Assembly: GCA_032718475.1 (NCBI GenBank)
Contig: JAUCBJ010002550.1
Span: 22,653 to 86,652 of the forward strand
Length of the DNA: 64,000 nt
Reading direction: 5' to 3'
From: Nemertoderma westbladi
Lineage: Eukaryota > Animalia > Xenacoelomorpha
Made by a program: the position numbers and the translations under genes. Below are positions 755 through 29,333 of the stretch, piece after piece. Each line of letters starts with the position of its first letter. Positions within the stretch are counted from its first letter, which is position 1. Below the pieces are notes generated by a model, which worked only from the letters and a program-made list of their open reading frames with translations, made no database searches and was not told the origin of the DNA.

Positions 755-1360
755 ATTAGTAGGAATGTGTTTTACTGAACTACGGTTCGGTAGGACTAAA
801 GTTTTTTGAAAAATTTGTATTTTGAGGTAAAATTTTGTATTTGATTAGCTAAGTGCTAATTTTTTGAAATAAAATTTGATTTGAACCGCGTGTAAAATAT
901 TTTTGGAATTGAATACCGGTGTTTAAAAGGGTTTAAATACCATATTGTACCGGTACAAAATTTTCGTAAAGTAAAACCTAACTCTTTTGTTTTTCAGGAT
1001 TCAGAACTCATTTCTAGACTGTAACGGGAGCAAGACCGTGTTTAGCAAGTTTGGGAGATAGATAACTCAACAACTTTGGTTGGGAAAATCGCGTTTCGTC
1101 CGCAACGTTAAAAACGGAAAGGTTCACGTTCGGTTTGTATCTGGGAATCTGTTTTTCTGGAGAATTATTGGAGTGGGTGAGTTCGAAAAGTTGCATAAAT
1201 AAGTTAGGCATTACCGTATTAGTTAAAATTATTGTGGGTTCCACTGTCTCAAGTATTTATGCATTCCGTACGATTTCTTTGTTCATTGCTGAATTAGTCC
1301 GTATTATTGTATTTAATTTACCTTTTGATAACGCATATCGTTATCCGATTTATTTGTTGT

Positions 1361-1483
1361 AAAATTGGCCGCTAGGCTAATTTTATTATATACTTATTCC
1401 GTGACATTTATTTGCTGTAAAATTGGCCGTTTAGGCTAATTTTATCCATCTGCTATAAAATCGGCCGGTAGGCTAATTTTATA
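1361..1483 (+). promoter_or_regulatory. Three tandem stem-loops in the BEL-1 leader (candidate packaging/dimerisation signal)
   Basis: AAAATTGGCC-loop-GGCTAATTTT at 1361-1384, 1419-1443 and (variant) 1457-1480, just upstream of the gag ATG. Confidence 0.5.
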
Positions 1484-1566
1484 AGACTGTAATTAGTACC
1501 GTTTTGTATAAATACGGTAAAACTCGATACTTTGACACTCACTTTACTTGACTTACAACTACCGAA

Positions 1567-4500
1567 ATGAGTGACAAACAAGACTATACGAAGAACACAC
1601 AAACCGACTATGACTCGTGTGACGGAGATAAGTCAGCAGCGGAAGAACAACAGGGGAAGACTCGCGAGCCTACCGAACCTACACCGTGTGCGTCACCAGT
1701 ACATCCAACGGGAGTACCGGATGCCGTAGTACGAGGCGACGGCAGGACCGAGGACTTTCTAACTGTTCCGCAACCTAGATATAGGGAAACGGAAATGGTA
1801 AGTTCAGCAGGAAGCACAGAAAGTGTGGTTAGAAGCGTCGGTGGATACATGGCGCATATTACCAGGAGTATTGGAGAAGGCCAACGCATATTAGACGGGT
1901 TGACCGCTCCGATGTCTCGATTCGAGTTCTACACCCTCCAGGTTAGAGTACAGAGTAAAGTATATAAGTCCGTAGATAATCTAGTTGGCCTACAAGATCT
2001 AGCTAGACAGAGACAGGACATGGATACTCAACTTAGAATCCTCGAGAAACTAATGATCACTAGAGAGAAACTGATTCAGTTTAAGTCGACGATTAGACAG
2101 ATACAACAGGAACAAGCGGACCAGTTGTTAGGTGAGTCAGTTTCGGACGAATTATTGCAACCCGAGGAAGAACAGGAACTGTACCGACTGGATGGACAAT
2201 TGAAACATCTGACGGACCACTTACGTATGTGCGGCGAAGACGTCGGCGATTTGGAAACCGTGCCGGAATATACGAAAGAAACTTCACCCGTACGAATTGA
2301 ATCGGCACCGGGAATACTGGACCAATCGTTGGTAAGTATTCGTAGCGAAATCTGCGAGGGAAGTATAGTCACGTCAGAAGTTGCTCGACAACAGCAAGAA
2401 TTCCACCGACAACGACAAGAAATGGAAGAACAAGCTCAACTTCTAGTGATGCAAGCAGCAGTAGAGGAAGAGAAGCTACGCGTTGCGAATATAGCAAGAA
2501 TCTCTCATCTACAGGAACAAGCTGAATTAGAAGCAGCTGAAGTAGAAAGGTTAGAGTTAGACATTGCCCGACAAGCGGCAGCGGCAGCGGCAGAGTCAGA
2601 GCGACAAGCGGCAGCGGCAGCGGCAGAGTCAGAGCGACAAGCGGCAGCGGCAGCGGCAGAGTCAGAGCGACAAGCGGCAGCGGCAGCGGCGGAATTAGAA
2701 CGAGACAGGTTAGTTTCGGAGGCGCGGGCCGAAATGAAAACACGGCAAATAAAGGCTCAATCCGCTATACGACAAGCGGAGTTTGAGGCGCAACGACAAC
2801 AAACGGAACAACGAGAGAAGACAGCTAAACTTCATTTCGAACTTGAGAAGAAGGCGAGAGAATTAGCGAACGCTGAGGAAGATCTGGATCAAAGGGCCCG
2901 CGATCGTTCGATGAGATCTCGTGACGGACATGATTTGGACCAGTTAGAGGTAAGACATCGCCAAATTCAGGAACGGAAGAAGGAAGGAAGCGTAGGAGCA
3001 CCCGGACGGGAACGACAATTAGTAAAGGACGTGTGTCAACGATTCCCACAGGTAACTCATATGTTTGCACCGGTTACGACTAAGGAACCTGTTTCGATTG
3101 CGGGTAGTAGTGATATTTCTCCTATCCATGGTGCGACGGAACACAGGTTTGTTATTCCGGACGAGTTTATACCGCCAAGAGCAACGTCGTCGCCCATTCC
3201 GAAAGTCAAGGTAAGTAACCCACCGATTACGGATCGTAGTAGTTTATTAACCGGACCCGCACTACTGACGACAAAACAGGTGAGTCCACCTTTGACACCT
3301 AAACCCGTTACACATTACGCTTATCCAATGACGTTTCGACCTACAAGGCCAGTTGTTTCAAATGCTGTCATTCGCCCACCGAACCAGTTTACATCGCAAT
3401 CTACGACTTCGAGGAAGACTTGTGAGCCTACCGAACAACGAAGAACAGTGGAGACGCGACCATTCAACCAGTTTACATCGCAATCTACGACTTCGAGGAA
3501 GACTTGTGAGCCTACCGAACAACGGAGATCAGTGGACGATGTTCCGAAACGAACCGTTAGAATTCGTACGACGCAACGAACGCGAGCACGTCGACCACCA
3601 TATCCAGATGATAGTAGTACTTCGAGCGAATCGGATTACCCGAAACGCGAGGTATTTAGAACAGGGGCGGCCGATGAATATAAACGCGAGCGTTCAGACA
3701 ACTCTTTTGCAGACAATCCTCCACAGAATACACCGACACAGAAGGCGTTACCACCAGCGGGCGCGATCGGTGCACAACAGTTCGCCGACATTGTCAACAA
3801 GTTGGCCCGGATTGAGGAACGTCTGGAGGAAGGTTACACCGACAGTTCGAGAAATTCCGAATTCGAACACAATAGACACCCGAAGGGACCACAAAGACCA
3901 GTACCTTCAAACCCCACAAGCGATCAGGGAAAAGCGCCAAGAAGGGAGAACATCAACCAGACTACCAACCAAGGACGCGAAACTCTGAACGTTGCCGAGG
4001 AGATAGCGAAATTCGCAGCCAGACAAGGATTGCCGGTACAACAACCACCGAAGTTTTCCGGTAGCTCAAAACACTGGCATACCTTCGTAGACTATATCGA
4101 ATCCCAGATCGCCGTGTGCGCCTTTACATCACGGGAGAAGTTCAATTACCTGCTCCAAACGTTGTCAGGAGAACCTAAACGTTTGGCGGAGACCTTCGTC
4201 GGTGTACCAGACGCTTTCGAACTAGCGTACGATCGTTTGACTTCGATATACGGAGGTACAGTGAGTATGGCCAGGTCAGTAATAGAAGAACTCTGTAAGG
4301 GAGGGGCTATCACTAAACCCGTCGACTTACTAAAACTGGCTGACGAGATTAAGAACGCTATCACTACCTTAAGATCAATTGGACAACTTGATTACGGGAA
4401 TACCCCTACAGTTCTATTAAAGATAATAGGACGACTCCACCATCGACTCCGTCGGGAGTGGAGGAAGGTCGAATACCAGCGGGAGGAGCGGGGAGGATTC

Positions 4501-6378
4501 TTAAAATTAGAAGATGTGTACCTTTTAATATCCAGGGAGGCGGTAGTAGAAACTCGATCTAACTATACCGACCAGCACATCGTGGCAGAAGGGATCACAC
4601 TGCCATCCTCCAACCGACAAAAACCCCAGACAACATCCACAAAGACGGCCACTTACGCCACACCGACGGAATCACGACAATTCTCAGACGGTAATAGAGT
4701 ATCTGCGCCCATTGGGACGAAACAGACGAGACAGCAACTCAGCACCGACTTCAACGGCTGCCAATACTGCGAACATCTAGGTAAGCGGTATATTGGTCAC
4801 AAGTTACGAGGTTGTCGACAATTTCGCGAGTTGAACTCGGAAGAACGACGGCTGCAGATACGGCCACTGGACTCTTGTTGGCGGTGTACGCGACACGGAC
4901 ACGTCCGTAAGGATTGCCCAAATACCGACACTTGTCCATCCTGTGGACGCAACCACGACATTCTGCTCCACACAGACAGCCACACGCCGACGAAACGCTT
5001 CGCCAGGGAACACCCAGAAGCAGCAGCGAGATGTGATGCGGCTTACCGAAAACGAGAATCGAAAACGACTCCAACCTTCGTGACCCATATTGAGGATTGC
5101 TTCTCAGAACAATCCGGATCGTCGGACGAAGAATCAGAAGACGACGATGTATATTCCAATGGAGACGAACAACCGTCGATCGCGCTTCTAACCACTGACC
5201 AACTGAAGGGATTCAGTGTAATCCCGATTAAGATCACTGGCACAAAAGGGAGTAAGAGGATTTACGCGATTCTAGACTCAGCCTCATCTCACAGTTACGT
5301 GGATGAAAAGATAGCTGACGTCGTAACGGATCTCAGACAAGGTAAACACGTCAGTTATACAGTAAGTAGTATGCACGGCCAGCGTGCAATACCAGTGACA
5401 CGAGTTAAGTTGGACTTAGACTCTCTTCTTCCAAAATCGCAACACAGCGAGAGGGAGAGGTCTTTGTTACCCTTTAGAGATCTAACCTTTGCGGCCACGA
5501 AGGACTTTAGTAACCTACTAGGTCCAGTGCCGGAACAATCTCTGGAGGACCGTAAGTATTTCAGACACCTTGGTGTACCTGAATGTCCTGTCAATTATAG
5601 ATCGGTAGCAATGCTGATCGGGACGGACCAATTCAACCTACATCAGGTGTGGGAAACCAGACCATCGGCAGTTGTAGCGGGAAACGCATACGCCTGCAGA
5701 ACGCCGATAGGGTGGTATACTCGAGCGCCTGTGCGCACACTAGACGTAAGTGACGAGGAAGACGATGTACAGAGTACATGTAGTTTATTAACTACAAATT
5801 CAATTCATTCCTTTTCACACGACGTGAACCATACTACACTACAGTCGACAAAACACGACAGACGTGTAACTAGTATGATAAGTCACAAGGAGCAGCTAAC
5901 CCACAAGGTGAGTTTAGAACTTGGGGAGAAGACGAGTCAGCTGGAGATTCCATCGACGACAGATGATAGGCTTGCGAGTCTACCTACCCCAATAACCTCA
6001 ACAGTGCCCGTCGATATCGATGATGACGCGTTGAGAAATCATCAGTTGGAACAAGCCGCCTTGGACAAAGAATTAACGGAGAAGACTATCAGGTGGTTAG
6101 AACAAGATACAGCTGAACCTGGTAGCTACGAACCTTGTATGTCGGAACAGGAGAAACAATCTCTGAAGATCATGGAAGATACTATCCGCCAGACGAAAGA
6201 CGGACATTATGAGGTAGGGATGTTATGGCGTAGCCAAAGTCCTAAACTTATAAACAACTATCCACTGGCTTTAAGACGTCTACACTCAATCCGACAACGT
6301 CTATTAAAAGACGAGAAAGCCCATCTGCAGTACAACACTCAGATGGAGACGTATTTGACGAAGGGATACGCTATCTGA
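1567..6378 (+). CDS. BEL-1 Gag + aspartic protease + start of RT region (ends at an in-frame TGA)
   Basis: 1603-aa ORF with a coiled-coil N-terminus, BEL gag core (PPKFSG...KFNYL), Zn knuckles CQYC..H..C, CWRCTRHGHVRKDC and CPSCGRNHDILLH, and protease YAILDSASSHSYV. Confidence 0.92.
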   Translation: MSDKQDYTKNTQTDYDSCDGDKSAAEEQQGKTREPTEPTPCASPVHPTGVPDAVVRGDGRTEDFLTVPQPRYRETEMVSSAGSTESVVRSVGGYMAHITRSIGEGQRILDGLTAPMSRFEFYTLQVRVQSKVYKSVDNLVGLQDLARQRQDMDTQLRILEKLMITREKLIQFKSTIRQIQQEQADQLLGESVSDELLQPEEEQELYRLDGQLKHLTDHLRMCGEDVGDLETVPEYTKETSPVRIESAPGILDQSLVSIRSEICEGSIVTSEVARQQQEFHRQRQEMEEQAQLLVMQAAVEEEKLRVANIARISHLQEQAELEAAEVERLELDIARQAAAAAAESERQAAAAAAESERQAAAAAAESERQAAAAAAELERDRLVSEARAEMKTRQIKAQSAIRQAEFEAQRQQTEQREKTAKLHFELEKKARELANAEEDLDQRARDRSMRSRDGHDLDQLEVRHRQIQERKKEGSVGAPGRERQLVKDVCQRFPQVTHMFAPVTTKEPVSIAGSSDISPIHGATEHRFVIPDEFIPPRATSSPIPKVKVSNPPITDRSSLLTGPALLTTKQVSPPLTPKPVTHYAYPMTFRPTRPVVSNAVIRPPNQFTSQSTTSRKTCEPTEQRRTVETRPFNQFTSQSTTSRKTCEPTEQRRSVDDVPKRTVRIRTTQRTRARRPPYPDDSSTSSESDYPKREVFRTGAADEYKRERSDNSFADNPPQNTPTQKALPPAGAIGAQQFADIVNKLARIEERLEEGYTDSSRNSEFEHNRHPKGPQRPVPSNPTSDQGKAPRRENINQTTNQGRETLNVAEEIAKFAARQGLPVQQPPKFSGSSKHWHTFVDYIESQIAVCAFTSREKFNYLLQTLSGEPKRLAETFVGVPDAFELAYDRLTSIYGGTVSMARSVIEELCKGGAITKPVDLLKLADEIKNAITTLRSIGQLDYGNTPTVLLKIIGRLHHRLRREWRKVEYQREERGGFLKLEDVYLLISREAVVETRSNYTDQHIVAEGITLPSSNRQKPQTTSTKTATYATPTESRQFSDGNRVSAPIGTKQTRQQLSTDFNGCQYCEHLGKRYIGHKLRGCRQFRELNSEERRLQIRPLDSCWRCTRHGHVRKDCPNTDTCPSCGRNHDILLHTDSHTPTKRFAREHPEAAARCDAAYRKRESKTTPTFVTHIEDCFSEQSGSSDEESEDDDVYSNGDEQPSIALLTTDQLKGFSVIPIKITGTKGSKRIYAILDSASSHSYVDEKIADVVTDLRQGKHVSYTVSSMHGQRAIPVTRVKLDLDSLLPKSQHSERERSLLPFRDLTFAATKDFSNLLGPVPEQSLEDRKYFRHLGVPECPVNYRSVAMLIGTDQFNLHQVWETRPSAVVAGNAYACRTPIGWYTRAPVRTLDVSDEEDDVQSTCSLLTTNSIHSFSHDVNHTTLQSTKHDRRVTSMISHKEQLTHKVSLELGEKTSQLEIPSTTDDRLASLPTPITSTVPVDIDDDALRNHQLEQAALDKELTEKTIRWLEQDTAEPGSYEPCMSEQEKQSLKIMEDTIRQTKDGHYEVGMLWRSQSPKLINNYPLALRRLHSIRQRLLKDEKAHLQYNTQMETYLTKGYAI
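2569..2694 (+). repeat. 33-bp coding tandem repeat (RQAAAAAAESE) x~4 in gag
   Basis: Directly visible in DNA and protein; an 84-bp duplication is also present at ~3382-3524. Confidence 0.9.
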
Positions 6379-9300
6379 ATGACTAACCCGGAGCGAGTGA
6401 CCGACCAAACGTATTACTTGCCACATCACTACGTGAGACACCCCGACAAACCAGACAAAGTACGTGTAGTCAATGACTGTGCGGCTCTGTTTGAGGGAAT
6501 GTCCCTCAATAGTGAGTTGATGGATGGACCGAACATGAATAATTATCTTATGGGGGTGATTATGCGCTTCCGTCAGCGTCAAGTAGCCTTTACTTGCGAC
6601 GTTGAAGCGATGTTTCACCAAGTAAAAGCGTTAGAGCGAGACAGAGACAGTTTGCGGTTCCTCTGGTATCCGGAAGGAGATTTAAGTCTACCACCGGCGA
6701 CTTACCAAATGCAAGTTCGCGTTTTCGGTGCCAGAGACAGCCCAAATTGTACGATGTACGCCCTAAAGCAGGCCGCTAGGGATCAGAAACATCTATATGA
6801 CCCAGAGATAATTAGAATTGTGGAGCGTGACTTTTACGTTGATGACGGATTACAGAGTTGCGACACAGTAGAACGTGCTACAACAGTAGCACATCAATTA
6901 CGGGACTGCTTGGCGGGCGGAGGTTTTAACCTCACCAAATTCGCCTCAAACAGTGCCGAATTAGTAGACTCATTCGGAACTACTGAGCGTGGAGGTGGTG
7001 ACATAGACCTAGAGTTCGAACCACTACCGACGACCAAGGTGTTGGGGCTCTTTTGGGACCCAAACACAGACAACTTTCGAGTGAAGGTGAGACTGGACAG
7101 TCAAGGGAACACACTGACAAAGAGATCATGCTTGTCAAAGTTGAGCCGATTGTTCGATCCGTTAGGATTCATCAGTCCAGTGATACTGCAAGCCCGCATT
7201 TATATGCGCAGTATATGGAAGGATGGACTAACTTGGGACGAGCCGATCTCATCAGACCAAGTGGACTTATGGAAGACCTGGGAGGCGGAATTATCTTCGC
7301 TAGAGGATTATTCCATACCCAGGGTTTACTTTCCATTGCAAAGTACATTTCCTGACAACTTGGAACTACACTGTTTTTCTGACGCCAGTGACAACGGTTT
7401 TGGTGTGGCAGCGTACCTGCGCAGACAAGTAGAATCAGACGAGTTCGATGTTTCGCTCATTACTTCTAAGGCTAAGACCATGCCTACTAAGTATATGACG
7501 ACACCACGAGCCGAGCTACAAGCCGCAACCCTGTCAACCACCATCGTGAACCTCATACAGACAGAACTACAGTCGAGTTTACAGATATTTTATTGGACTG
7601 ACGCGACGTTGGTTTTATTTTACATAAACAACGACACACTCGAATTCAAGACATTCGTTGCTAACCGTCGCGCGGAAATTCTAGACCGTTCAATAAAAGG
7701 GGATTGGCGACATTGTCCCGGACCACAAAACCCAGCTGATATTGCGTCGCGAGGAATGATGCCTGAGGAATTCTGTAAACCGGAGAACAAAGAGTTTTGG
7801 CAACACGGACCCCAGTTCTTGCAGAAATCGACACAAGATTGGCCTCCGTTATACGACAACAAGTCCAACACTATTCCCAAGGACGCCGAAATCAAGAAAC
7901 CAAAAAAGGGGAAGACAAAGAAAAAGACGACGGCGGCGAAACTCAAGAAAAAACCGAAGGCGAAATGGAAAGATATAACTTCAAAGGTCAAGAGAGGAAG
8001 ACTTGCGAGCCTTTCTACACCAGACATATCGCCAGACGGTCAACCAGACACGTTACCAGACGGTCAACCAGACACGTTACTAGACAGCCAACCAGACATT
8101 TTGCCAGACATATCACAAAATGTTCCACCAGACGCTAGTAACACACTGACAAACAGTAAAGCCGCAGTTTCCCTATTGGAGCGGCCTTCTATTGACAAAC
8201 AACCAGATACGTTACTAGACGTATCGCCAGACACATTACTAGACAGTCGACTAGACACTAGTAATGTATTGACTAACAATAAAGCCGCAGTTTCCCTATT
8301 GGAGCGGCCTTGTATTGACAAACTACCAATTTTGACACACTTGAGCAACCATAAGCACGGTGAAACCTCATGTATTACAGATGTGGGTAGTACCTACGCT
8401 AATGTAAATACAGGTGTTACTTTGCGCTCAAGAGACATACCGAACTTGCAACCTATGTTGAAACCTGGGATTAATGTCGGCAGGAAAATAAGTTTACCGA
8501 AACCTGCTGACCCCATAGAGTTCAAACCACCATTAACGATCGACTTACAAAGTACCGACAATCAAGGTAAGAAGACAAAGAAGGACAAATTACTTGTAGA
8601 CCCCGACGGATCAACAGTCAACAAGGGAATACTTACCGGCGGACCCGTGGGCCCTTCTAGTAATTCAAAACCTTCCAAGTTCTCCATTGACTTACCTGAT
8701 GACGTCACAAATACTTACGTCGACCGTATCGTAAACTTAACAGACTCTTGGTCAAACGCTTGCCGAAAATTAGCGTGGATTGTACGTTTTGTACAATACG
8801 TTAAAGGCAAACGTGACTTTACACGTCGACTTACATTGGCTGAGATTGACAGGTGTGAGATTAAATTAATTCGCCATTACCAACTGCGATATTTCGCGCG
8901 CGAATTCACATCTATAAATCAAGGTCAACCAATCAAGTCACCGATACTGAGTTGGAGTCCGATTATTTATAATGGCTTGATTTGTCATAAATCTCGGCTT
9001 CAAAACATTGACTTTAACACAAACTTTAGGTACCCAATAATAATACCGCAACATCACGAACTACAACGTGCAATGATACTGGACGCACATTTACATCTGA
9101 AACACGCTGGAAGACACCACTGTCTTTCCTACTTACGTACTAGATTTGTATTAATTAGACCCAGTAAAGCATTAAGTTCAGTGACACGTACGTGTATTAT
9201 TTGTAAAAAGGTACATTCTAGAATAGGTACCCAAGAAATGAGTGAACTACCACAAGCACGACTTCAAGCATTCAGACCACCTTTTACAGAGACTGGAATT

Positions 9301-9732
9301 GATTGCTTTGGTCCCATACATACGAAACGTGGACGTATACTAGTAAAACGCTGGGGACTGATTTTCACATGTATGTCCAGTAGGGCAGTTCACATTGAAC
9401 GTGTGATGGATCTTTCCACCAACGCGTTTATACTAGCACTGCGGCGATTTATCGCTAGACGCGGACTAGTAAAATGCTTGTACTCAGACCAAGGGACAAA
9501 CTTTGTTGGTGCTCGGAATGAGATTGCTAGAGCCTTTAAGAAATTAGATCATGATCAAATCTCGAACGAACTGCAACCTCACAAGATTGTTTGGAAGTTC
9601 AATCCTCCAGATAGTCCTTGGAGAGGCGGAGTCTGGGAGAGACTGATTAGATCTATCAAAGACAGCAATGGCAAAGGTCATTCCAGTAAACCACATATTA
9701 ACAGACGACCAACTGACAACATTGTTTGTTGA
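6379..9732 (+). CDS. BEL-1 reverse transcriptase-RNase H-integrase (same frame as gag, after the stop)
   Basis: YYLPHH, DVEAMFHQV, DFYVDDG, FDPLG, FSDAS, NPADIASRG, HHCC zinc finger, GIDCFGP, SDQGTNFVGA. Confidence 0.93.
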   Translation: MTNPERVTDQTYYLPHHYVRHPDKPDKVRVVNDCAALFEGMSLNSELMDGPNMNNYLMGVIMRFRQRQVAFTCDVEAMFHQVKALERDRDSLRFLWYPEGDLSLPPATYQMQVRVFGARDSPNCTMYALKQAARDQKHLYDPEIIRIVERDFYVDDGLQSCDTVERATTVAHQLRDCLAGGGFNLTKFASNSAELVDSFGTTERGGGDIDLEFEPLPTTKVLGLFWDPNTDNFRVKVRLDSQGNTLTKRSCLSKLSRLFDPLGFISPVILQARIYMRSIWKDGLTWDEPISSDQVDLWKTWEAELSSLEDYSIPRVYFPLQSTFPDNLELHCFSDASDNGFGVAAYLRRQVESDEFDVSLITSKAKTMPTKYMTTPRAELQAATLSTTIVNLIQTELQSSLQIFYWTDATLVLFYINNDTLEFKTFVANRRAEILDRSIKGDWRHCPGPQNPADIASRGMMPEEFCKPENKEFWQHGPQFLQKSTQDWPPLYDNKSNTIPKDAEIKKPKKGKTKKKTTAAKLKKKPKAKWKDITSKVKRGRLASLSTPDISPDGQPDTLPDGQPDTLLDSQPDILPDISQNVPPDASNTLTNSKAAVSLLERPSIDKQPDTLLDVSPDTLLDSRLDTSNVLTNNKAAVSLLERPCIDKLPILTHLSNHKHGETSCITDVGSTYANVNTGVTLRSRDIPNLQPMLKPGINVGRKISLPKPADPIEFKPPLTIDLQSTDNQGKKTKKDKLLVDPDGSTVNKGILTGGPVGPSSNSKPSKFSIDLPDDVTNTYVDRIVNLTDSWSNACRKLAWIVRFVQYVKGKRDFTRRLTLAEIDRCEIKLIRHYQLRYFAREFTSINQGQPIKSPILSWSPIIYNGLICHKSRLQNIDFNTNFRYPIIIPQHHELQRAMILDAHLHLKHAGRHHCLSYLRTRFVLIRPSKALSSVTRTCIICKKVHSRIGTQEMSELPQARLQAFRPPFTETGIDCFGPIHTKRGRILVKRWGLIFTCMSSRAVHIERVMDLSTNAFILALRRFIARRGLVKCLYSDQGTNFVGARNEIARAFKKLDHDQISNELQPHKIVWKFNPPDSPWRGGVWERLIRSIKDSNGKGHSSKPHINRRPTDNIVC

Positions 9733-10225
9733 AATCGAGGCAATACTAAATACTAGACCAATAGTATTAGTACCCGATGACAAACAATCTCAGTTTGCTT
9801 TAACACCAGCACACCTGCTTATGCAGGCACCGACCACATTGACGCCGATTTCCACTCCAATGGAAAGCGATAGCTACGGTAGAAAAGCGTGGAAAATCAC
9901 GCAACTACTAGCTAACAAATTCTGGGAAATATGGCAAAACCATTATTTGCCCTCTATTTCTGCCAGAACAAACTGGTACAATAACACCCGCGCATTAAAG
10001 CCGGGAGATCACGTGCTGTTGGCAGAAGTGAATCTAAAAAGACGCTTCTGGATAACAGGTGTCATTTTAGCCACACATCCATCTATGGATGGAGTGACAA
10101 GAACTGTGACGGTACGGACAATTGACGGTCGTACAGTAGACAGACCGACTCAACGTCTCGTACTTCTTGAAGAGACTCGTAACGAGTCTGGAGACTACAA
10201 ATCTCCACCTAATACTAGTAAATAA
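9668..10225 (+). CDS. BEL-1 integrase C-terminal part (frameshifted continuation)
   Basis: EIEAILNTRP, LTPAHLL, FWEIWQNHYL and DGVTRTVTV are typical BEL integrase C-terminal motifs. An extra A in ATCAAAGACAGCAATG (~9660) explains the shift. Confidence 0.9.
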   Translation: MAKVIPVNHILTDDQLTTLFVEIEAILNTRPIVLVPDDKQSQFALTPAHLLMQAPTTLTPISTPMESDSYGRKAWKITQLLANKFWEIWQNHYLPSISARTNWYNNTRALKPGDHVLLAEVNLKRRFWITGVILATHPSMDGVTRTVTVRTIDGRTVDRPTQRLVLLEETRNESGDYKSPPNTSK

Positions 10226-10886
10226 TTAGGAGTTTACAAATAGATTTCCACGTACCTGTACACCGTAGTAAGGACAGCGGTAGAATTCCATTGTCTTTAT
10301 ATGTGAACATTGAGGGTAGTACCCTTATGTGTCACATAGGAGCGGGATTTGTAGGTATAAGAAATGGAATTCTACTTGGAACTCACAATATTGAGACATT
10401 TTCGAAATTTTAGACAATCCATTTGGATTTGAAAAAATTTTAAAATTTTCTCCAGTGAATAGATTTCAGGGTACAGTCGGGTGGAACTTAAAATTAGAGA
10501 AACAAGAGGAAGACTTGCGAGCCTTTCTTAAAATTTAATTAAAATTTTACACGGTCTTGTTTCAATAAGTTACATCAAATAAATAGACTCCCCTATATTT
10601 ATTACTAATTCTTGACTGCTTATTTTCTGATAATAGTTTGGGATCAAAAAGTGAGTATTTTAGACTCACAGCCAGTTTAGCCCAAATTCGTTTTTATTTC
10701 GGCAAAAAATTTTAGATAAGAAGCAGCGTGTCATTAAAGAAACCCTAGATCTTAGGCTATGGGTAGGAGGTTAGAGCGTTGTCGAAGCCCAAAAGGCAGA
10801 CGAAACTCTCACGTCTCCTCACAACTAACCACAAACTCTGTTGTATTCCCTCTAGTAGTAATGATTATGTAACTACACCTCTAATT

Positions 10887-12589
10887 ATGGAGAAAGGGAT
10901 ACAAAGAGAGCCGAGATGGGGATATGATATCCAAGAGGAGGCGGCAGCTTCATTCGAACGATTTGGAGCAAAAGACTACACTATATTTGGTATAAAGGAA
11001 TTATCAGAAAGTACAGCGAAGCTCGCAAAGACAGCAATGCCTTTACTCGAGCAGGATTTAGTATATTTCGAGACGTGTATCTTCGCTGTGCGGGATCTCT
11101 TATCGAAAGACCATCTATGTTTACATTGTTACCCTATGAAGGAGAACGTATCGTGGAGATTACGGATGAATCACGGCAGACGCGTGCGCCTATCGGTCAC
11201 CTTGGTGATGAATTCGAAGTAACTACTACGATCGCCGACGATCCTTTAGAGGAACTTCTTGAGATTGAAAGGAACCTCCCGAAGAAATCTCAGACGGAGA
11301 TTCGACAACTTGAAGCAACAGATGCTATAGTTTGTATACAACCTTCAGAAACCTACCAACCCATAGACCCAGATGATTACGATTATAGTATGGGAGGAAG
11401 CGCTCGACCGATTGGAGATTTTATATACGAACGAGTGTGGTACCCTGCCAATACGATGTGTAGTAAATGTGGCGTCGCTGGACATCATATGACAAAGTGC
11501 AGTGGAAAGCACATTACTACGACTCAGCTAATCTGTGGATGGTGTGGGGATCAAGGGTCTCATACCTTTTATACTTGCTGGAGATTTATGGCTCAATGTA
11601 CTTACTGCAATATAAAGGGACATCGAGCATCTGAATGCCAACTGAGAGACATACCTTATGAACACGAATCTGTAAAACTCGTGAGGAAGTTATTTGATGA
11701 GTGGGAAGATTTAGCCGACGAACATGTATCGGCACAGAGAAGACGGTTTCCGATGAGAGCGCATCTCGGATTTTGGGCGGTAAATCCCCAGACGATGATG
11801 TCGGAAGGATACATCTCCGCTATGCCTCAATATGACGAACTTATCGAGGTTGTCGATATTTTGCCCCACGACAGCGGATTCCGAGTGGTGCGCGAGTATC
11901 TGTTACAAATTCACCCGGATAACAAAAACACGTGGAATTTTCAGAAAGTCGTTAATCGGATTACGTATGGTGAATTCGATCGTTTCCGAACTGAAAGGCG
12001 GAACAAGGGAGCTTGGTTAACCGTCGCATGGGCGTACCGAGCCGCGTTTTACCACAAACGTATACGAGCGAGCGTATTCGAGGAAGAAGAGGTCCTAGAG
12101 GCGACGAACATATCAGCCACTCCGGTTGCGCCGTCTGCACGTCACCCTCGGGAGGACGGGCAGGGTAGGATCATACGGGTCCAGAAAGTGGGCCAACAAT
12201 TGAAGAAAATTATTAATGTAGAAGAACGCAAGGGAGTTGAGCCGACCATTCGAGTTACTCGGGATACGGTATCACTTCCAAGAGAACCAGTAGGAGGATC
12301 GGGACATACACCAGCTGATCAACAGGGGGCGCAAGCTACTCTCGGGTCTGCGTCGTCCGCTTCTCACGCGTTCCCAGACGTTCTACCAACTGTAGTGACG
12401 ACTGATCGGTCACGAGGAATTGGTCGAGGTTTTGGGATGCCAAATAGACGAATTTGCGAGGAAATAGTCGCACCGTCTCTCAACGTCCCAAGTAAACCAG
12501 TGACTCGCCCCACGAGTCCCATATCGCGAGCAAAGTCACCTGTGCGCAGTTTTCGAGGACGCGGCAGGGCTCGATCAACTAAACGATAA
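10887..12589 (+). CDS. Additional 3' ORF (ORF3) of BEL-1: triple CCHC zinc-knuckle protein with RG-rich tail, likely one frameshift near the 5' end
   Basis: 504-aa frame 11075-12589 has CSKCGVAGHHMTKC, CGWCGDQGSHTFYTC, CTYCNIKGHRASEC and C-terminal RGIGRG/RGRGRAR. An overlapping upstream frame starts at ATG 10887. No evident signal peptide or TM helix. Confidence 0.75.
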
Positions 12590-12689
12590 AAGGGAGGGCA
12601 AGGGTGGACGGAAGACTCGTGAGCCTTTCTTATGATTTGTGATTTATTTGAATTATATGTTTTATATTTAGAAAGTTTGTATTCTGAAA

Positions 12690-13270
12690 GGGACTCATAT
12701 TTAGTAAAAACTTATATTTTATATTTGTGCTTATTCCAAACTTATGCAATTTGTATTGTTCCGAATTTATGAAATTTAGAAAGTTTAGAAGGAACTTATA
12801 TTTGAAAGATTTATGTTTCATATTTGAGATGCAAAGGTTTATATTATTCTAAACTTATGCAGTTTATATCTATATTTAGTAAGACTACCCAAAAGAGAGT
12901 TTATATTTGTAAGAATTTATATTTATATTTGTAATTATTTCGAACTTATACAATTTATATTATTCCAAACTTATGCAATTTGTATTGTTCCGAATATTAT
13001 GCAATTTATATTTTATAAGCAGTATTTGTACCTAAAGAGAAAGTTTTATAGACAGAAAATTTTGTGCTCAGAAAGACTCATATTTGTAATTATTCCAAAC
13101 TTATGCAATCTACATTTAGGTACGAAAGTATTTGTAATTACTTGAATTTATGCAATATTTGGGATGCAATAGTAGATGGAAGACTCGCGAGCCTTTCTTA
13201 TTGTTTTCATTTATTTGTATTTGTAATTGTTTGAATTTATGCAATATCTGAGATGCAATAGATTTATATT
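12690..13270 (+). repeat. Degenerate AT-rich repeats (TTATTCCAAACTTATGCAATTT core) in the BEL-1 3' non-coding region
   Basis: Core visible at ~12731, 12846, 12937, 12960, 13090 with further degenerate copies. Confidence 0.7.
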
Positions 13271-14848
13271 GGTGAATTTAATTTAGATTTATATTGTACT
13301 TACTTAGCAAAGCCTTAAATACGTAAAGTTTGAATTTGTAATTATTTTGTATCGAATCATTACGTAGAAAGGAAGTATTGTTTGAAATTTAATTGTAAAT
13401 ATGTAAGTACGCCCTAAGTATTTTATAGTTTGATTGATTATTGGTGAAAACCGTATATTTTATGCACGATAATATCCTGTTTTCATGGAGCGGTATAGAA
13501 TTATATTCCCTAAATGCCGTGGATTTTCAAAATTTTATTTTATTCGGATTAACTTTGTAAAGATTGCTTTGAGTTCTCATTCGTATTGGTTCTATCTATT
13601 ATGCATCTATCGGTCAAGTGGTTCAGTAGCTCAGCCCAAAAACAGTTGGCCTCGAGGTGCGTCCTAGGTGCGTCCTAGGCTAAGCTGAGGTCCGTCCTAG
13701 GCAGAGGGCTAAGGTACGTCCCAGGCAGAGACAAGTTTGATTGGTTGTTCCACTTGCTAGCTAGGGAATTCCTTCTTGAATCCGTCATAGTAAGCGAGGC
13801 CTGTGATTGGCTAATTCAGAATTAATGTGCTGTTTGTTATTGTAAATTTTCTGGATGCCGAGAATGGATTGTAAAGTAGTATTAATTAAGAATTAATTCA
13901 AATGTAACTAAATATTACGTTACGGAAAAAATTTACAAAAAATATGTGAATGCTCCATTTTATATTTTTTATTTGTATTCTTGTTTAAATCAAACAAACA
14001 GGTAAATAATGAGTTGTGCGGTGTAGTGTAAATTATCATTGTTTGGTTGTGTGGCAACTGGAGTAGCAGGCTGGGTATTTGGGTAGCCCCAGTTGTGCGG
14101 GCCTGGACAGGGTTTCCATCCAATGCTAACATGTATTGCAACTGTATAATGTTTAGAATGCCAGTGAAACAAAATAGGAGGGTCCTTAGTAGTCAACTGG
14201 AGTGGCAGCCAATATCGTAAATATTCATTCCAGAACATGTATTTATTTAACATGGGTTATATGCAGTTCATTAGTTGCACAGAAAAGGAGACACATAGTA
14301 TGTTGAAGGTGGAGTTGATTCTATTGGTTGTCTGACTCGACGGCTGGGATATCCCAGTGAGCGTATACAATAGCAGGGCTTCCCTCTAATAATGGTATCA
14401 CAATGCTACTATAGTATATTATTTTTCATGGCTTGCGTTTATGTGCCTATTAATCAGTAGTATTTAGTATTGTAACTGTAACAACTGTGTTGTTAATAAT
14501 ATTTCTTATAATTGTATATATTTGCTGCTACCTGTAATACATTTTACAACTTTAATTATTTAATTAATTAGTTAACCTAATTTTAACTTATTAATTGGAT
14601 ATTCCTGTTTTGATTTCTACATAAAATAACCGTATATAAATTGCAGGTTTAGTTACATTTTAATTTTATAGTTTCGGTTTGTAATTTTTCACTTTGTCAT
14701 ACAAACTTAAATTTGTAAAAAAAGCTCTGTAAGTTAAATACAGTAATTTTAAAAAATAAGCAATGCATAACACAGATACACAAACAGGGGGGGGGGGGGG
14801 GGGGGCAGTGGAAAAGTGTACCCGGGCCGCTATGTCCTAAATTAGAGA

Positions 14849-14923
14849 TCAAGATGCCATGAAGCAAGTTATTTTGCTATTACGACTCCTAATAGCAAAA
14901 TAACTTGCTTCATGGCATCTTGA
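14849..14923. repeat. Perfect 34-bp inverted repeat with 7-nt loop
   Basis: TCAAGATGCCATGAAGCAAGTTATTTTGCTATTA-CGACTCC-exact reverse complement. Confidence 0.95.
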
Positions 14924-15164
14924 CGCAGTGGATAGCTGCCTTGTATTGTACATAGCCAACCAGTCTCTCTCTCTATCTGGGTAAACCAAGCACATACTGT
15001 AGACTCCATTATGTGGTTTACTTGTGCTAGTAGTAGATGCCACCAGGTCAAGGCTTGGTTATTGGCCTTATTGGTCAAGGCCTGCTTTACTCTGTATACA
15101 TTTGACTTATCACAGCAGACTCAGAAATTAGTCATCAATGTAACATAAATGATATTATATTCAG

Positions 15165-16382
15165 GGTGTTCGGACACTTCCCCCCCGGACACTTCCCCCC
15201 CGGACAGTTCCCCCCCCCGCTCAAGTAGGACACTTCCCCCCCGGACACTTCCCCCCCGGACAGTTCCCCCCCGCTCAAGTAGGACACTTCCCCCCCGGAC
15301 ACTTCCCCCCCAGACACTTCCCCTCCCCCCCGCGGACACTTCCCCCCCGACTGTTCTTAACTTCGCACATTCGTATTTTTCATTTTGTAAGGTAAACGGA
15401 CCGCTTGTATCCAGATAAGTTGTATCCAATTTTCCTTACGTAGCTCAGATAGTGATCTTTTGCATCCTGATTTTACATTTTATATCCAAGTTTTATTTAT
15501 GGGTTTTATCAATGCAATTACATAGTATTGTTTGCTAATCTTTAAACGATTAATTATATTAGATGACCTATAAATTCCATCCACCGAATGATATACTGTT
15601 TTTATTAACTATAGAATTATAATAATTAATTGTTTTAATTATAGGTATTATTATGTAATAGTCTTCTTCAAATTGTAGCAGATGGGGATGAATATTATTG
15701 TTGCAATCAAAATTATACCTCTCTAGGGTAAAATCGACATGCGTCGACCTGTATTCTGTGTTCAGCATTACATACAGTATTAATATACATATTACTACTA
15801 TACATACTATATAGATATTATACACACTACATATTAAATTTCCTGGTTACTTGCGATATTTTTAATAGGATTTTGTTGAATTATATAATATTGTAGTAAT
15901 TTATATATTAAATTGGTTAACATTCAATACAGCTCCTACTTTAGGCTTAGTCAATTTATTATCTGATGATACAAACATGAATTAGTTATTTCAAAGTGGT
16001 CTTAAGTCTTTCACCACGGGCACTCAGCGAAATACCGGGTTATGGGGGCGATAACCCCCAAGAAATGAAGCGGGGGGGTTTGGGGGCGGCAGCCCCCAAG
16101 AAAAGAAGCGGGGGTTTGGGGGCGGCAGCCCCCAACAAAAGAAGCGGGGGTTTGGGGGCGGCAGCCCCCAATTAAAAGAAATTAAAAGAATTAAAGGAAT
16201 TAAAAGAGAAACAAACAAAATTTGACTATAAAAATGTTTCTTTTATAATTTTGAAAAAACTTGTCTAGATACAACTTGTCCTGTAACCATCTTTAACTTT
16301 TGTTTATTGCTTTGATGCACCCAGATTAATTTTAACACTTTAACTGGGGGGGAAGTGTCCGGGGGGCAAGTGTCCTAGATCC
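15165..16382. mobile_element. Non-autonomous Mutator-like (MULE) DNA transposon
   Basis: 9-bp TSD TATATTCAG (15156-15164; 16383-16391); termini GG-N5-GGACACTT with subterminal GGACACTTCCCCCCC repeats inverted at the right end. Confidence 0.8.
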
Positions 16383-17395
16383 TATATTCAGTTATCTGGT
16401 CTTTTGTGGTATTCCACTGTCATTTAATAGCTACTTATTGGTCTTTAAACAATGTCGAAGTCTCACCATTTTAAAGGATTGAAGTTTTACCGCGACAAGT
16501 TCATAGCACTTGCTAACAGCCCGAGTGGGAGTAGAAATCTGTACGTAACTTTACAGCGTTTGATAACATAACTTTACAGTGTTTGAACCCATAACTTCTC
16601 AGTTTTTGATCCCATAACTTTAGGCCTAAAGTACCGTTTATCATTTATTATATTACAATTTTACCGATGTACAATTTTACCGTAATGTAAATAGTTTTTA
16701 TTATATTACAATATAATAATATTCTGTATTTTAGAAAAGACCTACGATTTTATAATAGCTCAATTTATTATAATAGCTAATATGATTTCAATATAATGGT
16801 ATGTATAACGGTATACCTCTTTTTGTGCCATTTTGGTACATTGTTTTAATTACATAAACGTTTCACTGCAGTTCATTTGTGTAATGAGTAATGATTTATT
16901 TAATCAATAAATATTTATCTACTAATTATTAAAAGCAAAGAAATATGTAATATTCAAATTTATATTTTCCCTTAATTTCAAACCCTCTTTTTTATTTTCC
17001 TTCCCTTTCGTCTTTATTATCTTTTTTAACGCAACATGTGGGCGTGGGGTGGGCCTTCGCGCCGCACAAGAGTGAGTTAGTAAGCCTAGATAACAATATA
17101 TTTAGCACCACCTAGTGGCGGGCCAAGGAAATTGTGCGACGCCAGAAACTGCCTCATTTATTTGAGACCAAAGATTAGACCGACTGACGACAGACCGTCA
17201 GACAATCAGACAGACCTACACGAGGTTGAGATAGTGATACTTGTAAACTAAGATCTCTAACTTTCTTGACTTTTTCTTTCCCTACCCTTCTTTTGCTTTT
17301 CTCCTTTCCTTTCTTTTCCCCTTTTCTCTTGCCCCTCTTTTTCCTCCTTTGTTATAATTTTTTCTTCCCCCCTCCGATCAGGCTATCTTACCCCA

Positions 17396-17470
17396 GCCCT
17401 AGCTCAGTTGGTAGAGCGTTGGAAATTATAAGTGTAGTAGGTATCGAGTTCGAATCCTAGTAAGTGCGAA
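17396..17470 (+). pseudogene. tRNA-derived sequence (SINE head or tRNA pseudogene)
   Basis: Pol III A box TAGCTCAGTTGG (17400-17411) and B box GTTCGAATCC (17448-17457); no clean anticodon or acceptor stem. Confidence 0.65.
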
Positions 17471-17921
17471 TTATTTTTTGTGCAGAATTTCAACTCATTT
17501 AAATTAACCGCTACAAATTAATTGCATTTATCTGTACCAATGAGACTGTAGTTATTTGATTGTAACCAATGTCGTGCAAGTTATATATTAGCTGGACCAA
17601 TAGCTATCTTTAAAACCTTGTTAGAACCTATAGAACAATCGAGAATTTTCTCGATTGATTGCAGCACAAATTTGGTATATAAAGGTGCGATTTCGTTCAT
17701 TAGTTCACTACTCAATCACTTCAATATTCACATCATTATTCTGTCGTGCTTAGTTTATTCTCAGATTACATTGTATTATAATTGTATCTTCTGTAATAAA
17801 GTCAGAATATTCCCTCAGTTTTCTATCTGTTTTACTATGGTTTCACTACGGTGAACAAACTCAGGGACAGGATGGCCAGCTAGAGATCGGGCCGCAGCAA
17901 TGAACGGGAACATCACGGGAA

Positions 17922-19168
17922 TGTAGACGAGAGACAACCCGCAATACCTTTAGAGTTATTCGCCCATCGCCTGAAAGGTTAGACAGCGTTTGATCCTTGC
18001 TACCTAAGTGTAAGACCAAAAGATCAACAGGTAGAAGTAGTGACACGCTGTAAGCCCAAAATTACATCATAGGGACTGTACTGTCTTGATTCAGGAAAAC
18101 CCACAGTAGACCTTCACATTCCTACGGGGGGAGAGCGCAGGCAGATACTAGTACGCAGATAGGACGTAGGCACACCGGTACAAGGCATACACATTGGTTA
18201 GGGTGCAGCAAACTGTACGCTTAACTCTTGCTAAGTACAGGTGCGCGTGCGACTATTTGCAGTACGACAGTGTCCATTGCATTAGAACTTGTAGGCTAAG
18301 GGGGTTGCTGTGTTTTCACCTGAATTGGGATTGTACCGTTCAGGCGGTAGGGCAGTTTACACTAGGCGCAAATAAATTGAGGCTATCAGGGATATACTAA
18401 CATCTACCGTGTCCCCGCCAACGCCCTAATAGGAAGTTACCCGGACTACCTGGGTGACTAAAATTCTAGATAGGAGCCAGGATAGCTATTAGTACCCGTA
18501 CGCCTACAGTAGTAAACTAACACATCTCTTCTTAGTATCAGGGACCTGGTACCTAAAATTGCCGAATTCTGGGCGTAGTATTAACCTTATGCCTGAATTT
18601 GAGTCCTGGAAATACGCAAGAGGGGAAGGAACCTTATCATTCGTGAGTATTGGACCTACAAGTTACAAAATTAGAATATTCGTAAAATGCACACCGTACC
18701 CAGTAATTATATATGTGAAGGAGCAAAACTGTTTTGACCGTTCAGAATTAACACACGCGCGTTAGAAATTATTTACACCTCGAAATATATAAAATTAACT
18801 TAGTCCGTACTGTGCTTTGCCCGCTAGTTAGACATCTCCAAATCTCTGCCTGTACCTAGCTAGCGTCCCTTCGCCCAACCATATAAATCACACCGCGGCA
18901 AAGTATACGAGCCTCTTAGTCCGTCAGTGAGTCAGCCTGATTTTAGGATTCGCTGCGCGGGATTTTGTTTTATCGAAGTTTGTCTGCTCGTAGACTGTTT
19001 TCTGCCTCACCGGTTATAAGAGATCGATACTGCAATATATTCGCTTACTTAGGGTTTACTGTTTTGGTGAGAAGGTCGGATTTATGATTTGATTTACAAA
19101 CTTTACAGTAGGATATTGCAGGTATTGTTACCGTCTCTTCCGATAGTAGGAATAGGCGTATCTCTTCA
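17922..19168 (+). repeat. Second LTR copy of BEL-1 (start inferred)
   Basis: 18415-19172 matches window positions 1-758. The start is placed tentatively at TGTAGACG (17922) after purine-rich sequence and cannot be confirmed because the 5' copy is cut by the window. Confidence 0.7.
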
Positions 19169-19173
19169 ATTAA

Positions 19174-19315
19174 TAATACACCCTGTAGTTACCACGTAGA
19201 ACCTATACTATACTATAATACATCCTGTAGTTACCACGTAGAGCCTATACTATACTATAATACATCCTGTAGTTACCACGTAGAGCCTATACTATAATAC
19301 ATCCTGTAGTTACCA
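19174..19315. repeat. ~42-bp tandem repeat x3.5
   Basis: TAATACATCCTGTAGTTACCACGTAGAGCCTATACTATACTA units starting at 19174, 19216, 19258, 19295. Confidence 0.9.
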
Positions 19316-20831
19316 TTTATATTATCACATTTGTTAAAACATCGCGATACTTGTAGTTTTACTTACCCAATAAATTTGATTTCAATCGTACTGTAACAGG
19401 AGTAAATATTTTTCAAGGAATTTTCTCAACTACAGTATTTATAGAATATTATTCAGCTTTGATATCTAAATTTTTTTTTAGTTTTTATTCAAATAGTATC
19501 GTTAGGTTTCAGTAATGGGTAATATTTACTTTGGATAAACAAAATGTCGGAAACTTACTCAACTGCTTTAGCTGGTAAATTAATCACTGCAATATTACCA
19601 ATGATCGATTATCATCTAGACTAGCATAGCTAGGCCCTACTATAAACGTGTGAATTAACCTAATGTGTAACTACAGTATGTACCAGTACATGTGAATTTG
19701 AAAGTATGGTACTTGTTTATGGGGTTATTTGATTTTAATCTTGTTATGTGCTGTACTGTACCTAACGGCAGCGTAAGGCTTGTAAGCTCCACTGGAACAG
19801 TAATTCGTTTGTAGTAAAAGGCGTATGTCGAAAGAAATAATTATAGAATACATCGGTCAACAACATTATTACCTTTTCTTGAGGACTGATTCCGCGTGCC
19901 CCGACAAGCATTGAGTTTAAATACAGTATGCTATGCCTATGGGTGTGTCAATGGCGCAAAATACCCGCAAAAACAAAATGTGTGTTTAGTGGGGTTGAAA
20001 AATTAATTTAATTTAATTTAAAACATTAAGGGAAATGAGTAGGTTACAGTACAAAAACAATAAACGAGACTTTATCTTCCTTGCGGTCAATTTGCGCTGA
20101 AGATCAAAATTTTTACTTGCGGTCAATTTGCGCCATTATATATGCTATCGGTAGGCTACAGTACTTTATACATCTTGTTATTTGCTACACCACACCCGTA
20201 AGGTGGCACTGTTATATGTAGCACTGTATGTATTATCATATATATTTTTAATATTTCAGTATTATGGATCAAAACAATCAAACAATACTGTAGGGTATGT
20301 TGTTGATTATTTTTACTGGTTTCATTTAGACTGTTGTCATGTTAGTTGTACCACTGGTGTTTTGATTGCCTTTCTGGCCCAGTTATTATTAAATAAACGC
20401 AATAATTTTTATTGTCCGTTTAAATCACTCATGATGTCCTTTTTTTTACTTATAATGTCCTCCAGAAATTTACCGTTAGGTTCCATGTTACCATGTCCAC
20501 CGGGTCCATGTCTCAGGCTATCAGTACCGGTATTATGTAGTATATAGAGCACTATATTAGTATTGCTGTATTGTATGTACAGATGTAGGTATAAAGCAGG
20601 TATTTTAGTACCGGTTCCGGCACCGGTATTGCTGTAGGCCTATTGTGTAGCCTACCATTTAAATACGGTAATGGTAGGCCTACCGGCTGACCGGTTGTGC
20701 TAATAAATTTTAAATAATTGATAGGCCAAACTGGATTGTGGAAAATGTGGATATTGTGGATATACCTTTCACATAATTTATCAGTTTTATAATGGATCAT
20801 GACTACTGTCTTCTACTAACCGGCCTGACTA

Positions 20832-22630: not shown

Positions 22631-22956
22631 TTGGCTATTAAATGAGTGTTTTGCTACGTCATGTGGTAATCGACTATCGACAACAACCACAAACTATTAA
22701 ATTTAGAGTCTTTTACCACAGACGCATATGGAAATCTATCTCATCTTCTATACCTATAAATATCAAATTCTGTCTGTCTCTCTCTCTCTCTGTGTTCGAA
22801 CTCCTCCAAAACGGGCGGAGGGATTGCGCTGGAACTTGGCATGTGTGTATAACTTTAACCAGCGGTCGTACTGTACCAGGCCCATTCTCCACTGGTACTG
22901 TAAAAGGCACAAAGTCATAACTAGTTTTCAGATATTGTCTGATTCGGAGGATTATA

Positions 22957-24767: not shown

Positions 24768-25094
24768 TGTGTAAGACTTTAATCATTAATAGGGTTTTGC
24801 AATCAAGGCGTACTATATACAAGGCCAAATATAAAGCGCAGACATAGTTGGTTAATAATAGGAATATTTAATTATTAATATTGCATTATCAGCCGATACA
24901 ATACACTTCTTGTCGAACCCACCACCTTATATTTAGTAATAGTAACTTAAATATGCAAGTGCTGCACGGTACGCTAGGCCTATGTAATAGCTGAAAGCTA
25001 CTAACAGCAATAAACTGCACCGAATGGGAAAAACACAAAGCATTGTATTACAGTGTTGTAAATCACATTACATAAATGGATAACGTATTATACA
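24768..25094 (-). repeat. 3' LTR of BEL-2
   Basis: Direct repeat of 29334-29660. Confidence 0.95.
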
Positions 25095-29117: not shown

Positions 29118-29333
29118 ATTTATATATTATATTATTAAACAAATTCGACTAAGCAAATAGCATGAATAGCCCAACTGAATAGGTATATCGAAATGGAGAA
29201 ATATGTATACTCATAGGCTCATTCATATTCTGATATTGCAGTATTGATAGGCAGATAGGCGATTAGTGTACCAACAGCTGGTAGAACAGCAGAATGTACC
29301 AAAGAAACAACGTCCTTTATCCGGTTCGAAGAT

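Follow-up and report, generated by a model that had tools for sequence, protein, structure and literature searches.

A BEL/Pao retrotransposon of Nemertoderma westbladi carries behind pol two overlapping open reading frames, ORF-A and ORF-B, the second of which encodes three CCHC zinc knuckles; one public contig shows the pair spliced onto the element's own leader. The element was analysed in a window of 64,000 nucleotides (the whole stretch of DNA under study, whose numbering is used throughout), and the stretch was present in five of the nine public sequencing runs listed. It is very likely that ORF-B together with ORF-A represents a real accessory gene encoded by the element. The first-pass annotation had assigned a non-env gene to the BEL/Pao element itself, and this assignment is borne out by the splice from the leader, the cover in four runs, the depletion of gaps and the motifs shared with the rest of the element.

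The main parts of the element were located as follows:

1–761, + strand: 3' part of the probable 5' LTR (start outside the window), 99.7% identical to 18415–19175
1567–10225, + strand: BEL/Pao gag-pro-RT-RH-IN (Pfam domains, motifs, homologs)
13635–17399, no strand assigned: insertion of 3.77 kb in the 3' region, bordered by an 8-nt duplication
17560–19175, + strand: probable 3' LTR (direct repeat; depth in run X2)

The gag ATG lies at 1567 and pol ends at 10225, both on the + strand. The Pfam domains DUF1759, Peptidase_A17, Integrase_H2C2 and DUF5641 were found in gag-pol, which has the Pao-type order PR-RT-RH-IN together with the LDS/LIG protease, YVDD and DAS motifs. Gag has a triple Cys-His box (boxes at 4759, 4876 and 4933) ending in CCHH, which agrees with the earlier observation that Gag already has its own knuckles. 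In the accessible text of PMC554778 the LDS/LIG, YVDD and DAS motifs and the triple box are given as BEL/Pao features; the spacer of the first box is longer here than in the BEL/Pao elements described there. The best 120 of 1,999 pol homologs are 39–45% identical, those with names being mostly from marine invertebrates, and no pol relative was found in viral contigs. The copy in the window is interrupted twice, by an in-frame stop near 6.38 kb and, near 9.65–9.7 kb, by a change of frame. The linker between RNase H and integrase (about 7860–8750) measures 295 aa compared to a median of 35 aa in 29 homologs, and contains short tandem repeats.

The 761-nt direct repeat probably represents the LTRs, the 5' start lying beyond the edge of the window. 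The summed contig depth in run X2, which gives no copy number, was 83,000–131,000 over 17560–19175 versus 29,000–68,000 inside the element. The start of the presumed LTR holds a compact TG...CA unit (17562–17857), which has TATA-like and AATAAA signals and could be either a solo LTR nested there or the true promoter/poly(A) part. The insertion at 13635–17399 is absent from most family copies: a joint in X2 connects 13634 to 17438, with low cover inside, and an X5 contig with a loose end at 13634 continues as 17408, skipping the insertion. It splits a tRNA/SINE-like A-box/B-box sequence of the 3' region (13627–13634 plus 17400–17480), at which ARAGORN called no tRNA, and holds a poly-G run, a 37-nt inverted repeat (14849–14923) and a high-copy unit with inverted ends (around 15150–16380). 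Elsewhere in the window we observed a second, unrelated BEL/Pao element (24768–29660, − strand; 327-nt repeats at 100% identity) without an ORF3, a Gypsy-type gag-pol (30980–34432, − strand), LINE-like RT fragments (38023–39632, 42132–42893 and 48667–49125), a 68-nt tandem array (20693–22636) with scattered relatives at 43–46 kb, and a long, strongly C-skewed stretch around 51000–59000 that is probably another array.

The accessory region consists of the following features:

10887–11222, + strand: ORF-A, 111 aa, no known domain, first long ORF on the spliced RNA (from the ORF list)
11117–12589, + strand: ORF-B, 490 aa from its first ATG, in a frame open from 10928
11459–11638, + strand: three zinc knuckles (X4, X5, X4) with spacers of 11 and 6 aa

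The + strand frame of ORF-B begins 660 nt past the pol stop and is open for 553 codons (10928–12589), for which the chance expectation at the local composition is about 2e-14. The earlier description of a frame of about 500 aa with three knuckles of given spacing proved accurate: CX2CX4HX4C at 11459, CX2CX5HX4C at 11534 and CX2CX4HX4C at 11597. ORF-B is laid out as an acidic N-terminal part, the three CCHC knuckles, an orphan central region and a low-complexity basic tail. A basic, RG-rich end had also been described; the tail is indeed basic (11 K/R and no D/E in the last 40 aa), whereas 'RG-rich' is generous for four RG pairs and no RGG in the last 70 aa. No hydrophobic segment was found in ORF-B, the best 19-residue Kyte-Doolittle mean being 0.75 (1.07 for ORF-A), as expected from the earlier statement that a TM helix is lacking; by the same hydropathy scan neither ORF shows an env-like signal peptide or transmembrane anchor. 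A simple pattern for a leucine-rich NES gave no match in ORF-A or ORF-B, and a scan for an NLS returned two short basic runs in ORF-B (residues 314 and 480). Two single-sequence fold predictions yielded low-confidence models (pLDDT 36 and 39).

ORF-B is without a homolog beyond generic knuckles, by sequence comparison. A protein search gave no hit at E≤0.01 among 7,998 candidates and none among 13 short candidates; against 1.84 billion proteins three generic knuckle arrays were matched, one of them by look a copia-type polyprotein; and no relative was found in metagenome contigs. Pfam returned weak zf-CCHC matches below cut-off for ORF-B, with no fusogen family among them, and nothing above cut-off for ORF-A and the flanking parts. 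The best Atlas score was 0.89 (fungal DUF8363), a lead only; shuffled proteins also reach scores under 0.9. A cluster at rank 9 (score 0.81) has AIR2-like_ZnK4 on 38% of its members, and residues 176–325 gave no usable match. The nearest PDB structures are retroviral nucleocapsids, which are RNA binders, at weak E-values of 0.025–0.8, and no Air2 chain occurs among the 13 PDB matches at E≤1. The proposed likeness to Air1/Air2 thus found no significant match in the Pfam, PDB, Atlas or protein searches. ORF-B showed no likeness to the element's own Gag (best E 1.4), and its third knuckle is CCHC versus CCHH in the third box of BEL Gag in the accessible part of PMC554778.

For comparison, the best 80 of 516 BEL loci were taken (32–47% identical); 67 extend to the end of integrase, and an LTR-like pair was recognised in 28. 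In 26 of the latter the repeat begins within 1 kb of integrase, leaving no room for a gene like ORF-A/B. A linkage of such an ORF3 to BEL pol elsewhere, which had been named as a point to check, was not recovered, as none of the 80 loci matched ORF-A or ORF-B at E≤0.01; these loci are distant, so that the absence means no more than that the gene is not general. Sixteen of the 40 listed downstream ORFs were scanned, among them all four with a knuckle, and these four were Gag.

The connection of the ORFs to the leader is given by one joint:

1177–10855, + strand: 9,679-nt intron, from a joint in run X4 (donor GG|GTGAGT, branch-like CTAAC, pyrimidine tract, AG)

One contig of X4 (depth 210.9) joins 1175 to 10855 (cut +1) with GT..AG ends, that is, leader donor 1176/1177 to acceptor 10855/10856, and shows that ORF-A/ORF-B are spliced onto the element's own leader; the short side of the joint is 29 letters, below the 31-letter threshold, and the run itself was guessed as 'DNA?'. 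The joint is absent from X2 and X5 among the joints listed (15 of 55). The contig may stem from spliced RNA or from a reverse-transcribed spliced copy, and the sites at 1177 and 10855 have been used either way. A position behind pol reached by a splice from the leader is that of an env gene (one contig). As in Rev- or CERV-type systems, the product comes from a spliced RNA and the genomic RNA retains the intron (one contig, side 29); with a strong intron of 9.7 kb, the genomic RNA must exit the nucleus unspliced. The leader also has a second donor-like site at 827 and a strong acceptor at 997, which suggest a short leader intron; no joint of 827 to 997 was found among the contig joints listed. 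The summed contig depth in X4 rises to about 7.6 kb, falls at 8.2 kb and rises again from the acceptor (ranges 5124–8233 and 10722–18185), and is flat in X2. This pattern would be compatible with two 3' ends of RNA should X4 be an RNA run; contigs by their nature do not show ends or levels.

The spliced RNA does not present a single long protein. A frame of about 560 aa starting at ATG 10887 had been proposed, and two overlapping ORFs were found instead, A at 10887–11222 and B with its ATG at 11117. The context of ATG 10887 is strong; that of ATG 11117 is weak and lies behind five upstream ATGs. Codon scores, of which only the differences between frames count since non-coding controls are also positive, point to frame A as far as about 11110 and to frame B beyond, with the switch at 11110–11155. 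The offset looks family-wide rather than a lesion of the copy in the window, as no gap is listed in 10887–12589 and an X5 contig crosses 11039–11188 without one. A single 560-aa ORF broken by a lesion is not supported: no listed gap in the other runs removes the offset, and a product of that length would need recoding. No internal intron joining ORF-A to ORF-B was seen among the joints listed (15 of 31 and 15 of 55). Viral slippery sites have a form that G GAT TTA at 11054 resembles, and no stable structure was found 3' of this site (z +0.8 and +1.0 versus shuffles). The sequence scan also gave two candidate acceptors at 11054 and 11141. Leaky scanning, a −1 shift or one of these further acceptors are candidates for entry into frame B. 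In a minor variant of X2, 118 nt at 11029–11148 within ORF-A give way to 19 nt; the net loss of 99 nt is a multiple of 3, and ATG 11117 is lost with it.

Other family copies carry the gene. Over 9300–13700, X1, X2 and X4 cover all 30 bins and X5 covers 27. Absence of ORF3 from other copies had been named as a ground for abandoning the gene; the region is covered in all four runs compared. Contigs link the pol end to the spacer (9875–10436 and 10025–10364) and the spacer to ORF-A (10442–10908 and 10600–10894), and no single contig across the whole region from pol end through spacer to the ORFs was found. Among the gaps listed for 9300–13700 (12 of 16), one falls in pol, 11 in spacers and none in 10887–12589, which is also free of gaps among those listed in a second comparison (12 of 45). 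The pol gap sits at the integrase break of the copy in the window, so that a frame break private to one copy would have shown up in the list. Of the non-pol gaps, 0 of 11 lie in the 1,703-nt coding span versus 11 in 1,772 nt of spacers (p=0.0006 by length, a value overstated because the spacers are AT-rich and gap-prone). Diverged contigs over the knuckles are likewise gap-free, with 60 differences in 288 nt at 11374–11661 (X1 and X2), 36 in 216 nt and 26 in 170 nt; diverged spacer contigs have 6–12 gaps. Sister families are 79–87% alike over the knuckles.

Substitutions were scored in coding frames for 27 variants, from the 40 best supported of 161 substitutions. For ORF-B 6 of 12 are synonymous versus 0.29 expected (p=0.10), and for the listed variants of ORF-A and ORF-B together 9 of 17 (0.29 expected, p=0.03); ORF-A variants before 11117 account for three synonymous out of five. 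Among the variants listed, 8 of 10 in pol and 25 of 32 in gag are synonymous, which is stronger than in ORF-B, and ORF-B is probably under constraint, weaker than that on gag-pol. Neutral evolution, another case that had been held against the gene, is opposed by the depletion of gaps; the synonymous excess in ORF-B taken alone is weak. A joint from 10530 to 13218 (depth 42 in X1 and 16 in X2, side 21) may represent rare copies without the ORF-A/B cassette. The reading of the frame as gag/ORF1 of a nested element is not supported: no own termini, target duplication, RT, or capsid or RRM domain were found, and the ORFs are spliced to the BEL/Pao leader. The same results (no own termini, duplication or RT, and a splice that joins the BEL/Pao element) speak against the concern, raised beforehand, that an independently inserted element had been taken for an accessory gene.

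A short motif recurs along the element. A 17-nt word has seven exact + strand copies, all within the BEL/Pao element, and a scan with the 14-nt pattern n-G-R-C-n-YGYG-n-G-Y-C-n, which makes no demand on pairing, gave ten + strand matches from 1658 to 13181 and none elsewhere in the window:

1658–1671, + strand: copy 1, gag N-terminal region
3416–3513, + strand: copies 2 and 3, in an 84-nt gag duplication (one event)
5968–5981, + strand: copy 4, between protease and RT
7999–8012, + strand: copy 5, RH-IN insert
8641–8654, + strand: copy 6, both bases changed in each of the two variable pairs
10511–10524, + strand: copy 7, spacer inside the intron
11178–11191, + strand: copy 8, overlap of ORF-A and ORF-B, both bases of the closing pair changed
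12613–12626, + strand: copy 9, 23 nt past the ORF-B stop
13181–13194, + strand: copy 10, 3' UTR

All ten matches are Watson-Crick paired at both free positions versus 0.06 expected (300 shuffles), and two copies (8641 and 11178) change three pairs on both sides. The pattern was picked after the copies had been seen. A de novo word count serves as the unbiased control; it gave six dispersed copies compared to at most three in the 80 BEL loci and in the second BEL element of the window, the element with ORF-B being longer than most of the loci compared. The copies stand in different reading phases, which places the signal in the nucleic acid; the 295-aa RH-IN insert contains two of them. On the − strand the pattern matches only the two self-complementary CGCG copies. 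The loops vary between C and T only on the + strand, whereas changes across the family are symmetric (X1: C>T 27, G>A 27), and the sole listed loop variant (11185) keeps YGYG. Seven copies lie in the intron and three in the spliced RNA, evenly spaced at one every 0.6–2.5 kb. Taken alone, the hairpins fold weakly (z −1.0 to +0.8 for the six segments with a copy), and the − strand folds better in seven of ten copies as RNA and in nine of ten as DNA, so that the motif may act on either strand. Rfam returned three weak matches, all short of the gathering score and none of them placed at the motif. The motif is a candidate target of the ORF-B protein.

Given its position, splicing, knuckles and basic tail, a role like that of Rev or CERV is the best fit for ORF-B. 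The likeness is one of analogy at best, and without an NES match ORF-B is not classed among these factors. RNA binding is predicted from the knuckles, and we hold it possible, as a tentative proposal, that ORF-B would bind the ten motifs and aid export of the unspliced RNA. Removal of the 9.7-kb GT..AG intron, seen in one contig, takes out gag-pol and leaves ORF-A/B, whose frames are kept across the family copies; the element has the ten co-oriented, self-complementary motifs with their compensating changes. ORF-B might then be translated after leaky scanning as far as 11117, or through a −1 shift near 11110–11155, its knuckles may read the YGYG loops and its basic tail may target the nucleus; by analogy, the unspliced RNA would be exported or stabilised and escape nuclear retention. 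Counted against this proposal are the lack of an NES match, the presence of three of the ten motifs in the spliced RNA, the single contig with a short side of 29 at the splice joint, the weak folds of the hairpins, often better on the − strand, the p of 0.10 for synonymous changes in ORF-B, the poor context of ATG 11117, the lack of a stable structure 3' of 11054 and the joint occurrence of motif and ORF-B in no more than one family; Gag's own knuckles could also be the reader of the motif. A fuller version, in which a spliced, possibly frameshift-joined knuckle protein coats the full-length RNA through a response element of ten mini-hairpins, six of them in polyprotein linkers, as the element's own Rev/RRE-like switch, is doubtful; if true, BEL/Pao would gain a 'complex' member whose RNA carries a distributed address code.

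The motifs could instead be dispersed packaging or dimer signals, read by the Gag nucleocapsid or by ORF-B as a cytoplasmic, nucleocapsid-like chaperone. Their even spread (0.6–2.5 kb) fits the dispersed packaging signals of RNA viruses (PMC6281560); any two YGYG loops can pair if G-U is allowed, and ORF-B has knuckles like those of retroviral NC and no NES. Packaging of the spliced RNA is not expected, however, and three motifs are on it; the 80 BEL loci lack such a repeat though they package RNA with a similar Gag, and we regard this reading as unlikely. We give the same low weight to ORF-B as an anti-silencing factor, either by decoying host knuckle adaptors that serve RNA decay, or by binding the motif in the form of CpG-bearing double-stranded DNA or of − strand nucleic acid. 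Plant VANC proteins offer a comparison for such a binder. The motif core has CpG/TpG and is nearly palindromic, its − strand folds are often better, and the AIR2-like_ZnK4 cluster was reached at rank 9 with a score of 0.81; but the two-sided pair changes at 8641 and 11178 fit pairing rather than base reading in duplex DNA, Atlas scores below 0.9 are within the shuffled range, and Air2 is not among the 13 PDB matches.

Least probable, and rather improbable in our view, is that ORF-B is a captured gag/ORF1 or a fragment of a host knuckle gene with little function, or an independent insertion, the motifs serving another role. The weak synonymous excess in ORF-B (p=0.10) and the awkward translation start would fit a passenger, as would the hint of rare copies without the cassette from the joint between 10530 and 13218 and the protein matches restricted to generic knuckle arrays, one by look a copia-type polyprotein. 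Set against this are the splice to the BEL/Pao leader, the lack of an own RT, termini or duplication around ORF-B, the absence of likeness to Gag (E 1.4; third knuckle CCHC versus CCHH in BEL Gag), the gaps that avoid the cassette, and the element's motifs both within it and on its two flanks.

The yeast proteins Air1/Air2 have serial knuckles, one with X5 spacing. ORF-B shares these traits; kinship with Air1/Air2 is not supported, and no significant homology over the knuckle array was found in the Pfam, PDB, Atlas or protein searches. Rev of HIV-1 has an arginine-rich helix, an NES and one compact response element, whereas ORF-B has knuckles, no NES match and ten separate 14-nt motifs. What would connect the two is the principle of a product of spliced RNA for structured sites of the unspliced RNA, as put for Rev/RRE in the accessible text of PMC10309623.

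Env identity was rejected as well, as ORF-B has neither a signal peptide-like or membrane segment nor a fusogen match. Env-bearing BEL/Pao elements comprise roo, Tas, Cer7 and a mosquito BEL with a chuvirus-like glycoprotein, and the extra BEL/Pao ORFs named are glycoproteins (both from the available sections of PMC554778 and PMC13524379). Like them, the present element has an extra gene, and ORF-B takes the place of env and is accessed through a splice; unlike them, ORF-B is without signal peptide-like or membrane segment and without a fusogen family match. ORFs behind pol are known more widely, according to the parts available of PMC5408684 and PMC6431247, and accessory genes are named for Retroviridae, Caulimoviridae and some Gypsy clades in those of PMC2774666. 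In bdelloid LTR elements the non-env ORF3s are a DEDDy exonuclease and a GDSL esterase, typically on spliced messages; they are family-specific, non-env and spliced like ORF-B, and unlike it they are enzymes or membrane proteins, with no knuckle ORF3 in the accessible text of PMC5408684.

In the literature searched, with subscription papers, Repbase and supplements outside its scope, neither a BEL/Pao knuckle ORF3 nor a dispersed hairpin set in an LTR element was found. Within that literature, a knuckle ORF3 with a splice and a dispersed motif would be new for BEL/Pao; extra spliced ORFs are already known in Gypsy, and CERV is the closest precedent. In Cer1 of C. elegans (Gypsy/Ty3), CERV is an orphan, cysteine-bearing spliced product required for exit of the unspliced RNA; it has an N-terminal half from gag exons, a C4-type loop and a candidate NES, and its RNA binding was left to be tested (accessible text of PMC10309623). 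ORF-A/B differ in superfamily, in a splice that leaves before the gag ATG, and in having three CCHC knuckles, two overlapping ORFs, no NES match and a candidate cis-element. The protein searches with ORF-B gave no CERV match. The function of CERV is shown; that of ORF-B, compared with CERV by description only, is putative. Descriptions of BEL/Pao elements give gag-pol, with env present or absent, and a spliced non-env knuckle gene would add a regulation like that of complex retroviruses, in parallel to CERV. If Gag reads the hairpins, an LTR retrotransposon would have dispersed packaging signals, a case absent from the literature searched. Overall, a candidate protein and a candidate 14-nt target in one element bear on how an LTR element marks its unspliced RNA.
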